The position numbers were made by a program, and so were the translations under genes. A DNA stretch of 32,000 bases from Bacillus subtilis subsp. subtilis str. 168. GTDB taxonomy: Bacteria > Bacillota > Bacilli > Bacillales > Bacillaceae. The first letter of the stretch is position 1; each line of letters starts with the position of its first letter. The stretch covers positions 2,220,001 through 2,252,000 of the forward strand of contig NC_000964.3 in the NCBI RefSeq assembly GCF_000009045.1, given 5' to 3'. Positions 5,337 through 7,488 of this stretch are shown here, in pieces. A model generated the notes under the pieces. That model did no database searches. It saw only the letters and a list, made by a program, of their open reading frames with translations, and was not told the origin of the DNA.

Positions 5337-5615
5337 ATGAATAAAACAGAACTAATCGCTAAAGTGGCAGAAAAACAAGGGGTATCTAAAAAAGAAGGAG
5401 CTCCCAGTGTCGAAAAAGTCTTTGACACTATTTCAGAGGCATTAAAAAGTGGAGAAAAAGTAAGTATTCCTGGTTTCGGAACATTTGAAGTTCGTGAACG
5501 CGCAGCTCGTAAAGGGAGAAATCCCCAGACAGGAGAGGAAATTGATATTCCGGCTACAAAAGCACCTGCATTTAAGCCAGCAAAAGCACTTAAAGACGCA
5601 GTCAAAGCTAAATAA
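5337..5615 (+). CDS. yonN: HU-family DNA-binding protein (phage paralogue of Hbs), 92 aa
   Basis: [12 protein letters not shown]...[44 protein letters not shown] is nearly collinear with bacterial HU. AGGAGG lies 8 nt before the ATG at 5337. The TTG at 5331 is too close to the SD. Confidence 0.95.
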
Positions 5616-5774
5616 TCAGTTAATGAGGACGACAGGAAAGGCTACCTGCACGCTTTGTCACAAAGAGCTTATGCTCCTAAAAGTGGCAGAGTTGGAAGTT
5701 ATGGAGGAAATTGTCGACCTCCCCTCTTTTCGCTTTTCATCTTCAACTCCGGGTTAATTAATTATAGTTATTTA

Positions 5775-7270
5775 TTTATGGCATGGGGGTGCCGTCAATA
5801 ATTAGTTGATTACTGATATTTGGGATATCAGTTCTCGACTAATGTTCATTTATGAAGGTAAAGACTAATCTAAATGAATATTAGTGGAGATTCCTCTCCA
5901 GTGTGAACTAGCTTTTCTCGATTAAACAATATCTACTCCCTTCTTTTCTGTATCATTCTGACACAAAACTGCGGCTGGTCATTGCAGTTAGTCGGATAAT
6001 AGTCATTTATGAGGGTGCGAGGTTAACTCGGATGTCTGTATCTTCAGGAGACAGATAAATGGCTATTATCGGGCTAAACATGTCGGTAAGACCTTTGCTA
6101 CTCAAGTTTTTTATGTAGGGTGAATCCCATCACAGTCTTACTATGGGTGACATGTATCCCTGAATATTAATTGCGGTGTACTGCTTCGGCTTACACTTAG
6201 GGAATGTAGATGCGTCTCCCTTCCCTTTAAATAATGCCCTTGTAAGCTTCGATGCTTATTATGCGGTCAACAAAATTTTTCCGGGTAAACGAGGCTTTGA
6301 AATTACATACCCTCGTAAAATAAGTGATATGGTTTTGGGCGCTTGATCACCGCTGTCATTTCACAGAAAAGGATTATTTTCGGTCTTGCCTTTTCCTTTC
6401 ACTTAGTAACATATTCGCTACTTTTCCTTCAAGAAACTTACCTTTCCCATGCACATACCTCCTTACACGGGTCAGAGAAAACTGTGCAAAATAAATGGCG
6501 AGAGTTTGAGACGCTTTGTTTCTCAATAAGGCGTGTAACCTGACAAGAGAGACTGAAAACGCCATTGAGAAGGCTTATAATGGGTCTTTCCTTCTCATTA
6601 TTGGTGTTTCGCCACCATAATGTGTCGAGGTTTAGAGTTAGTATTTCATTGTCTGATCGAGAGTAGCCGATTAATCCCGCGTGGGGGACACTAAAGATAC
6701 CGCGATACGTCCAGCTTTGGGATTCCTTCCATTGCCGCTACTAATCAAGGCTTCACTGTGAATTCAGAGATTTTACACAGTTCTTAAATGAATTAGCTCA
6801 TCTGCCATGTGCAGAAGGAGAATCAGTTTTCGCACAGCGATTACCGGTTTATATGCTCATGTACCATGATGTACAAGGAGTTCCTGAAGACGTTATTTTG
6901 GCGTCTTTTGATATTTCGACTTACTTATAGTTTGTCAACTGCAAAGGTTTCAGTCGCTGAACCCGTAATCAGCGTAATCCCTGTCGATCTGAAGGCTTGC
7001 GTCCCAACGTGAGCTAATGACGTAGGTGAAACGGGGTTAGAATGTAATCAGAACAAGGTCATCTAAATCGTTAGAAGGCCTTTTTGTGCTTGCGTTTTAC
7101 TGATCAGCCGGAATGTGTTTACGAGCCTTCCGGTACGCAAGTTATCAATAATCTCCTTCGGGCGTTTCCCCAACGCCTATCCGACTTATCTTTCATCTCC
7201 TTTATATCCCCTTCTCGGACGTTACCGATGCTTCGGATCATCGGGCTTCCGAAGGAGCTTATTGTACGTA
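5775..7270 (+). ncRNA. Candidate large structured noncoding RNA, or long structured 5' leader of the late operon (class unassigned)
   Basis: About 1.5 kb with no ORF that has an SD. G+C is 42-55% in hand-counted samples against about 30% in neighbouring genes. More than 15 helices, many nested or abutting, including 15- and 16-bp stems and C(UUCG)G loops. T:G pairs make sense only for a + strand RNA. No terminator before the yonK SD. Confidence 0.55.
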
Positions 7271-7296
7271 AATAGAAAATTATTGGAGGAATTTAA

Positions 7297-7488
7297 ATGG
7301 CAAGCAAAAAAGTACATCAAATTAATGTTAAAGGCTTTTTTGATATGGACGTAATGGAAGTTACTGAACAAACTAAAGAAGCTGAATACACATATGATTT
7401 CAAAGAAATTCTTTCAGAGTTTAATGGAAAAAATGTTTCAATTACTGTAAAAGAAGAAAATGAACTTCCTGTTAAAGGCGTTGAGTAA
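7297..7488 (+). CDS. yonK: Small acidic protein, 63 aa (YonK family), first ORF of the late block
   Basis: Strong SD TTGGAGGAA 7 nt before the ATG. Sequence and size fit the remembered SPbeta YonK small-protein family. Confidence 0.8.
   Translation: MASKKVHQINVKGFFDMDVMEVTEQTKEAEYTYDFKEILSEFNGKNVSITVKEENELPVKGVE

Follow-up and report, generated by a model that had tools for sequence, protein, structure and literature searches.

In type III toxin-antitoxin systems of the AbiD/F family (Abi_2, HEPN), a small RNA binds the toxin and blocks it. AbiF with RCd22 of C. difficile and AbiF with AbiFr of Prevotellaceae (PDB 8VZ6) are RNA antitoxin systems of this kind, and their RNAs, like those of the abiF motif (Rfam RF03085), are small and hairpin-rich, possess their own promoter, and lie beside an Abi_2/HEPN toxin gene. 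Antitoxin-like RNAs also occur in phages where no toxin is encoded: phages escape ToxIN through mimics of ToxI, such as the pseudo-ToxI of PhiTE, and a hairpin at phage sk1's cos site inhibits AbiF. Here, we analyzed the spacer between yonN (HU-like, 5338-5615) and yonK (7297-7488) of SPbeta in a window of 32,000 nucleotides (nt) from Bacillus subtilis 168 (NC_000964.3, positions 2,220,001 to 2,252,000, forward strand); all coordinates refer to this window unless a locus is named. The spacer (5616-7296) is 100% identical to positions 59153-60833, minus strand, of SPBc2 (phage SPbeta, NC_001884) and carries no annotation in the reference record. It is the largest gene-free stretch of a model phage and previously had no explanation beyond a passing mention of a non-coding RNA (ncRNA). 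We find that the spacer is a mosaic of at least 10 independently folding RNA modules, which are gained, lost and reordered among relatives. One of them, module X, is, by homology searches, a relative of a small RNA encoded beside AbiD/F-type toxin genes.

Other described RNAs share some traits with the spacer. The DUF3800 and skipping-rope motifs have been tied to nearby genes and carry terminators at their 3' side (Weinberg et al., 2017). One spacer module passes as DUF3800-VIII and another resembles skipping-rope, both followed by terminator-like hairpins; in contrast to the published motifs, no DUF3800 gene was found in a Pfam scan of 22 window proteins, and the skipping-rope match stays below the gathering score. 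GOLLD and ROOL, the precedents named in an earlier sequence-only reading of this DNA, are likewise phage-borne, helix-dense, free of open reading frames (ORFs) and, as in relatives of SPbeta, accompanied by a tRNA gene. This precedent did not hold, as neither RNA was matched in Rfam searches at E<=10 (5500-7400, permissive filters) or at gathering score across the whole window, and the spacer is modular instead of having one fixed architecture. Phage clusters of tRNAs and small RNAs resemble it in their tandem RNA genes on one strand and in their variable content, including a true tRNA-Trp in some relatives. They differ in that the SPbeta spacer lacks a tRNA (ARAGORN found neither a tRNA nor a tmRNA in the window) and most of its units are new structured RNAs.

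The spacer was compared with 12 SPbeta-like phages, 31 YonJ-anchored loci, and loci found by DNA patterns. Among the 12 phages and 31 loci, breakpoints recurred at 5742, 5851, 5982, 6051, 6172, 6231, 6395, 6440, 6600, 6794, 6855, 6916, 6978, 7056, 7080, and 7140. Modules were then counted with profile hidden Markov models (HMMs) over 149 loci, and the presence of blocks over 111 loci. In the 149-locus census, the order P1-P2-X-E-Y represents the SPbeta type, while P1-P2-X without Y represents the B. glycinifermentans and B. licheniformis type. Virulent Bastillevirinae and the B. pumilus type have X directly abutting Y, in the former upstream of the portal gene, and Y, X, and P1 also occur alone. 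In three loci, module K is relocated after block E and is followed directly by a tRNA-Trp(CCA) gene on the late strand of the homologous spacer (L031 3498-3569, L038 3484-3555, L041 3621-3692). The sequence-only reading had proposed a single giant RNA. The shared breakpoints, the varied arrangements and the module turnover argue against a single RNA of fixed architecture, as the blocks occur apart, in other orders, and in unrelated phages.

Covariation is stronger evidence for structure than folding energy. As its measure we used the number of base pairs with compensatory change, compared with slid-control alignments. The P1-P2-X alignment (A4, 5966-6233, 45 distinct sequences) comprises 68 pairs that are 94.9% paired, 13 of them compensatory (slid controls <=5). 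For Y (A3, 55 distinct sequences), 17 of 34 pairs are compensatory at 97.5% pairing (<=7 in controls). The X family alignment (A5, 17 sequences, phage and Abi-linked) is 95% paired, with compensatory changes in 11 of 20 pairs and 53 cells, against <=7 pairs and <=12 cells in slid controls. Outside these alignments, compensatory pairs numbered 5 in 5742-5966 (37 sequences; controls <=1), 5 in 6232-6436 (module E, 50 distinct sequences; <=3), 6 in 6794-6975 (module G; <=1) and 2 in 7140-7296 (28 cells, module Lp), with no control of these four blocks exceeding 3. We conclude that the modules of the spacer are real, conserved RNA structures. No Rfam family matched P1, P2, X, or Y, which represent four new structured RNA families, supported by covariation and absent from Rfam 15.

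The folding energies gave a more uneven picture. In 120-nt windows, the mean z-score was -1.44 for the spacer and -0.15 for flanking coding DNA (Mann-Whitney p = 0.001), and the spacer as a whole folds better than shuffled sequences. The excess is, however, concentrated in a few modules, with z = -4.7 (5798-5903), -6.5 (5966-6075), -3.3 (6880-6915), and -3.2 (7146-7265), whereas the remaining modules reach only -1.3 to -2.3 versus shuffled controls. The helices that had been paired by eye fared well: all 17 with arms of equal length are 100% complementary, and both the UUCG-capped hairpin 6176-6196 and the 16-bp helix 5995-6010/6055-6070 were recovered in A4. The helix 6157-6163/6197-6203 is complementary in SPbeta as proposed, but it competes with the covariation-supported helix 6199-6204/6221-6226. 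The assignment of the plus strand as the folded strand, which had rested on five T:G pairs, was borne out as well. All five are present, and several positions of covarying helices hold G.U pairs in dozens of sequences. Furthermore, the calculated stability is strand-asymmetric, with -42.3 (plus) versus -24.1 kcal/mol (minus) for P1 and -20.2 versus -9.4 kcal/mol for DUF3800-VIII; module T likewise folds much more stably on the plus strand. The G.U pairs and the asymmetric stability thus identify the plus strand as the RNA.

Module X consists of two hairpins, 6176-6180/6192-6196 with 6183-6184/6189-6190 under the UUCG cap, and 6199-6204/6221-6226 with 6208-6210/6215-6217; the stretches GCGGUG and GAUGCGUC are invariant. 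An HMM built exclusively from seven Abi_2-linked copies matched 6163-6229 (+) with E = 6e-12, which was its sole match in the window. Because of this match, and because the joint alignment keeps both hairpins, the link between the phage copies and the Abi-linked copies of X is firm. Nine distinct gene lineages were examined, and in seven of them (L181, L183-185, L198-L202) X adjoins an Abi_2 gene; it has its own predicted promoter in every lineage whose flank was read. In a prophage of B. subtilis, X is located between a YolD-like gene and the Abi_2 gene, upstream of the latter, with a -10 box and its own terminator. The corresponding protein is WP_172480879.1, 'Abi family protein [Bacillus subtilis]', and one strain of the host species B. 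subtilis carries the toxin together with X. In L183-185, which encode a 46% identical protein, the gene is followed by X at a distance of 60-110 nt, with the -10-like box TATGTATAAT. X is also found downstream in five of five further homologues (55-82% identity, including Desulfosporosinus orientis), where TTGCAT-like -35 and TATAAT-like -10 elements are present. The flanks of the homologue loci L182 and L186 contain no X; for L182, the downstream flank spans just some 210 nt. In L183, a G+C-rich region (1700-2000) with repeated GAUUUGAAAUCCG units precedes the 46%-identical Abi_2 gene; it looks structured and has no Rfam match.

The proteins encoded beside X match Pfam Abi_2 (E = 5e-31 and 9e-34) and PADLOC AbiD (E = 1e-24 to 1e-27). 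Their profile, searched against the PDB, retrieved only 8VZ6_A, that is, PbAbiF from the AbiF-ncRNA complex (E = 9e-9); a PDB search with the single sequence of the X-linked Abi protein found nothing, so that the profile was needed. They share an invariant RNxxxH (RxxxxH-type) motif, with R216, N217, and H221 invariant. We assign them to the AbiD/F-type (Abi_2, HEPN) toxins. The abiF model RF03085, in contrast, matched neither 6150-6250 nor the X copy of L199 at E<=10, nor L181-L183 at E<=0.1. Abi_2 homologues are absent from the window and from the SPbeta-like loci, and a tblastn search of a collection of 50,697 phage records detected them in 34 records, none from Bacillus. The phage copies of X are therefore orphans. 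Compared with the AbiF-type RNAs described above, X lacks a match to the abiF model and lies mostly downstream of its gene, the SPbeta copy has no toxin gene, and the antitoxin activity of X is putative. It represents a second, distinct class of RNA partner for Abi_2 proteins, downstream-encoded and not matching the abiF motif. X is thereby tied to a toxin family that is now known as type III toxin-antitoxin and as the ancestor of Cas13.

The position of the array in the late operon had been worked out in part before. Forrest et al. (2017) reported a start site for YonO-dependent late transcription at position 2225998 of B. subtilis 168 and mentioned 'an unannotated non-coding RNA' upstream of yonK. 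Of their primer-extension primers, the forward primer matches 5876-5899 exactly, and the primer for reverse transcription (RT) lies at about 6092-6118. As the primers map on either side, the start site falls within 5900-6092. Conserved sequence starts at about 5954-5968, and the start site is at the 5' edge of P1, the first of the new modules. The array is also the 5' leader, of roughly 1.2-1.4 kb, of the SPbeta late operon. The proposal of a late-operon leader carrying the YonO start signals was therefore right, though not new, since it had already been published by Forrest et al. (2017). In error, by contrast, was the statement that no T-tract terminator precedes yonK: the terminator-like hairpins 6886-6908 and 7055-7082 do so, each with a U-rich tract on its 3' side, and a terminator scan calls the former, which runs into UUUUGAUAUUU.

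We give an even chance to the reading that the spacer is a late-transcribed plus-strand RNA array including X as an orphan antitoxin mimic, a function that we infer. After induction, the phage polymerase YonO would transcribe the array at a high level. X would bind an AbiD/F toxin of the host or of a prophage and keep it inactive when host transcription wanes and the labile cognate antitoxin dwindles, and other modules might, by analogy with X, do likewise for other systems. The terminator-like hairpins would end transcripts of the host polymerase as discrete small RNAs, and YonO would read through to yonK. DUF3800-VIII and skipping-rope would fit the same logic because their families are defined by neighboring defense-type genes, which are absent here. 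X may act as an antitoxin or antitoxin mimic on the strength of its homology to the AbiD/F-linked RNA. It would differ from the phage mimics PhiTE pseudo-ToxI and the sk1 cos hairpin in being a clear homologue, in sequence and structure, of the cognate partner RNA, with an activity that is only predicted. Moreover, it resides in wild-type temperate and virulent Bacillus phages instead of escape mutants, and inside a late-operon leader among other RNA modules. If the phage X is an antitoxin mimic, it would constitute a natural, widespread RNA counter-defense against AbiD/F, carried by Bacillus phages of both the virulent (Bastillevirinae) and the temperate (SPbeta-like) kind, and would offer a way into the function of the DUF3800 and skipping-rope motifs, which have long been orphans. 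As B. subtilis provides all components, the idea lends itself to direct testing.

A broader version extends this function to the whole spacer, and we hold it only tentatively, as possible but rather improbable. The spacer would then be an RNA-only anti-defense island, a shuffling array of orphan partner-RNA mimics that YonO transcribes and that keep RNA-neutralized host toxins silent after the collapse of host transcription. X would serve against AbiD/F, DUF3800-VIII and skipping-rope for their associated genes, and Y, P1, and P2 for other partners, with a tRNA added in relatives; similar arrays would head the late operons of several unrelated Bacillus phage groups. 

Several findings weigh against the mimic array. 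An antitoxin role has been demonstrated for other AbiF clades only, whose abiF RNAs (RF03085) show no match to X, and in the studied AbiF systems the RNA is encoded upstream of the toxin gene, whereas X is mostly downstream. No protein partner was identified for modules Y, P1, P2, E, G, and Lp, and the PIN-domain gene that accompanies Y in two prophages codes for an ordinary type II toxin. Y consistently sits right in front of late, packaging or structural genes in three phage groups that are unrelated, which fits a role as cis-acting leader at least as well. The skipping-rope score lies under the Rfam threshold, and the screen for DUF3800 genes covered the 32-kb window of the 134-kb SPbeta genome. 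Finally, A, U, P1, P2, and the region to which the start site maps are all missing from the spacer of SPbetaL2; the late promoter of this phage must therefore be located elsewhere or be different. Its spacer starts at X, 7 nt past the stop codon of the HU gene (L011 1994-2062; also L019 3484-3545).

The same leader position allows an account without any trans-acting RNA, in which the folded domains act purely in cis, possibly by antitermination or insulation that lets only the right polymerase pass the terminators G and T to yonK, by stabilization of the mRNA, and by control of yonK translation through Lp. The YonO start site heads the array, and ahead of yonK no further promoter can be made out. 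Whether in SPbeta-like phages, Bastillevirinae, or small HNH-terminase prophages, Y invariably precedes late genes and shares their strand; in the small prophages, Y, T, and the first late gene follow one another as they would in an attenuation or antitermination leader. In addition, the ribosome-binding site directly adjoins Lp, the block with the highest conservation. A leader of this kind does not account, however, for free-standing copies of X with their own predicted promoter and terminator beside toxin genes, for DUF3800-VIII and skipping-rope, which are classed as small RNAs with terminators at their 3' side, or for a tRNA gene in the same spacer of relatives. The modules turn over much faster than the flanking late genes, the same modules occur in phages with entirely different polymerases, and no cis-regulatory family of Rfam was matched. 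On balance, we regard an exclusively cis-acting leader as unlikely, albeit deserving serious attention. Since the array doubles as the late-operon leader, a cis role is possible, chiefly for Y and Lp, whose placement ahead of late genes is conserved in three phage groups.

The remaining explanations differ in the nature of the element. A giant ornate RNA comparable to GOLLD or ROOL, in which P1 through Y, some 640-1300 nt, fold as a single particle, would agree with the size, the phage context, the many helices and pseudoknots, and the highly conserved unpaired nucleotides. Transcription from the YonO start site would yield it in one piece, and relatives carry a tRNA gene alongside, as is often the case for GOLLD and ROOL. 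We consider it improbable in view of the missing GOLLD and ROOL matches at E<=10, the restriction of all helices found to single blocks, the occurrence of blocks alone or in other combinations with spacers of 0-200 nt, and the terminator-like hairpins that interrupt the region. A signal at the level of DNA, that is, a YonO promoter made of DNA hairpins, a packaging site, or a replication origin, would agree with the inverted repeats that directly precede the start-site bracket at 5798-5903 and fold well on both strands (z = -4.7 and -4.8), and how YonO recognizes its promoter is unknown (Forrest et al., 2017). The packaging site was rejected, as the packaging start has been located between yonR and yonP, upstream of the spacer. 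Most modules display G.U-rich covariation and strand-asymmetric stability, pointing to RNA, and X and Y occur in phages without YonO, so that a DNA signal appears quite improbable too. Short hypothetical ORFs appear in the spacer annotation of several phage records, as decayed coding sequence would suggest, but no frame is held open across relatives, and the compensatory changes are far above the controls, which argues against chance structure. We attach almost no credence to this last pair of explanations.

The coding content agrees with the initial description of the spacer as ORF-free. The longest ORF with an ATG, GTG, or TTG start that touches the spacer has 79 codons and runs into yonK, and the longest stop-free frame within it has 99 codons on the minus strand. 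Of 12 related phages, no more than 8 keep any one stop-free frame of >=45 codons open. The G+C content is 41.6% for the spacer, 35.8% for the window, and 34.2% for yonO. The hand-counted values were exact, with fractions of 0.417, 0.417, 0.55, and 0.467 in the four spacer samples versus 0.30 at 2581-2640. The features of the spacer are compiled in Table 1.

Table 1. RNA modules and related features of the yonN-yonK spacer, in window coordinates
Feature	Position	Strand	Description
Module A, skipping-rope-like RNA	5621-5741	+	Directly after the yonN stop; below-threshold match to Rfam RF02924
Module U, three strong hairpins	5798-5903	+	Just upstream of the start-site bracket
YonO-dependent late start-site interval	5900-6092	+	Bracket from published primers
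Module P1	5966-6075	+	Hairpin 5968-5972/5984-5988, invariant GUCGGAUAAU, then helix 5995-6010/6055-6070 (16 bp)
Module P2	6076-6158	+	Outer helix 6078-6084/6149-6155, inner helix 6086-6092/6135-6141, variable hairpin 6098-6118
Module X, two-hairpin small RNA	6163-6233	+	Orphan member of the AbiD/F (Abi_2)-linked RNA family
Module E, linker block	6232-6436	+	Hairpins including 6243-6247/6254-6258 and 6289-6294/6311-6316
Module Y, multi-helix RNA with pseudoknot	6450-6599	+	Covariation alignment A3
Block G0	6600-6793	+	Closest SPbeta relatives only; hairpin 6597-6621, G+C-rich stretch
Module G	6794-6975	+	Terminator-like hairpin 6886-6908; hairpin 6955-6960/6969-6974
DUF3800-VIII RNA (Rfam RF03075)	6975-7040	+	47.5 bits versus gathering 40.2, model 1-64/64
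Module T, intrinsic-terminator-like hairpin	7046-7098	+	Core 7055-7082, A/U-extended to 7049-7088, into CUUUUUGUGCUUGCGUUUU
Module K	7087-7141	+	Hairpin 7089-7095/7135-7141 around 7108-7113/7128-7133
Module Lp, proximal leader domain	7146-7265	+	Closed by the 16-bp long-range helix 7146-7161/7250-7265

At the 5' end of the spacer, the skipping-rope model RF02924 matched module A at 5621-5730 over its full length with a 31-nt insertion, scoring 29.6 bits (gathering 36.7; E = 2.4e-4). The hairpin 5703-5707/5718-5722 followed by CCUCUUUUCGCUUUUC is terminator-like in look and was not called by the terminator scan. Module A is present in about 27-29 of the 111 loci, and its 16 close copies show no compensatory changes; the record of phage Goe14 annotates both skipping-rope and DUF3800-VIII as ncRNA. 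Module U folds into the hairpins 5801-5809/5835-5843 around 5812-5819/5825-5832, 5838-5852/5871-5885, and 5888-5901, with z = -4.73 and none of 200 shuffles folding as well. The phages L7 and L4 lack 5851-6051.

The 16-bp helix of P1 (z = -6.49 for the module) encloses 6018-6021/6027-6030 and 6036-6039/6051-6054. Helix 1 of P1 covaries between CUGC/GCAG, CUAC/GUAG, CACUUC/GAAGUG, and GCUGCU/AGCAGC, and U.G pairs of P1 are found in 29-35 sequences of A4. For P2, three compensatory pairs of this alignment fall in the outer helix and one in the inner helix. A possible pseudoknot, 6126-6130/6143-6147, has invariant pairs, on which covariation is silent. The hairpin 6098-6118 fails in A4 (42.6% paired), and alternative hairpins occupy its place in other lineages. 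Pattern scans of viral contigs for P1 and P2, run in search of partners, gave matches only in SPbeta-like leaders. Block E parts X from Y in SPbeta-type phages and is absent where X and Y abut (B. pumilus type, Bastillevirinae).

Module Y is built from H1 (6451-6455/6483-6487 around 6457-6460/6469-6472), H2 (6495-6500/6560-6565), H3 (6506-6511/6521-6526), and H5 (6567-6573/6590-6596). Its pseudoknot 6463-6468/6533-6538 covaries between UUACAC/GUGUAA and UCACAC/GUGUGA. The invariant loop 6457-6468 reads UACCUCCUUACAC; its CCUCCU core is presumably similar to the 3' end of 16S rRNA with the anti-Shine-Dalgarno sequence, and some of the loop is engaged in the pseudoknot. Y stands alone upstream of the late (HNH-terminase) operon in unrelated prophages and precedes the portal gene in Bastillevirinae. 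A pattern scan of metagenomes for Y gave 32 matches, 5 of them real and all five resembling SPbeta-type leaders. In the small HNH-terminase prophages with Y alone, Y is followed after about 55 nt by T and after a further 45 nt or so by the first late gene. Two prophages carry a PIN-domain gene between Y and T (L099 10350-10919, L053 2175-2744). Its homologues have a small overlapping upstream ORF of their own, for which reason we classify the gene as a type II toxin-antitoxin component; as these homologues have no Y nearby, the PIN toxin was rejected as a partner of Y. In SPR (L010 3560-4807, minus strand), a 1.25-kb insertion in the spacer after Y encodes a 415-amino-acid (aa) protein with no Pfam match.

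Block G0 was found in about 21 loci, and its 8 distinct copies are, at 96% identity, too alike for covariation. Within module G (z = -3.31 for 6880-6915), a 61-nt segment that only some relatives possess is bordered by a 27-nt direct repeat (6794-6820 = 6855-6881), which looks like a local duplication or an insertion scar. At 86-88% identity, the 61 nt of 6916-6976 recur in B. pumilus-type SPbeta-like phages and in vB_BauM_KLEB27-3, a jumbo phage that is unrelated; the segment is a further travelling module. Homologues of the adjacent DUF3800-VIII RNA score 51.8-58.8 bits in L017, L027, L031, and L033. The covarying hairpin T (7055-7082) with its U-rich tract follows 6 nt after the motif. T exists in 27 distinct versions with at least 4 unrelated complementary stems between conserved flanks (ACGCAAUCAGAAC...CUUUUUGUGCUUGCGU; z = -2.27). 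It is nearly palindromic including its A-rich and U-rich flanks (7046-7098; L067 12236-12322), and its own profile matches both strands; T could act as a bidirectional terminator.

The 20 copies of module K are without compensatory change. Lp (z = -3.15) is the most widely conserved block (about 86 loci); a C/U-rich loop and the hairpins 7161-7177 and 7225-7244 lie inside its closing helix. It is followed by the ribosome-binding site of yonK and the start codon (7297).

The genes around the spacer show traces of exchange as well. The HU-like yonN is 47-100% identical among SPbeta-like phages, while the flanking yonO and yonK-yonJ are nearly identical, and yonN appears to be exchanged as a cassette among these phages. 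In L001 (Goe14, 1-2459), L010 (SPR), L008 (phi3T), and L013, yonO is split into two ORFs, which suggests an intron or other mobile insertion in the gene of the phage RNA polymerase. The gene between the two ORFs encodes 300 aa with GIY-YIG and NUMOD3 domains and is, because of these domains, taken to specify a homing endonuclease.

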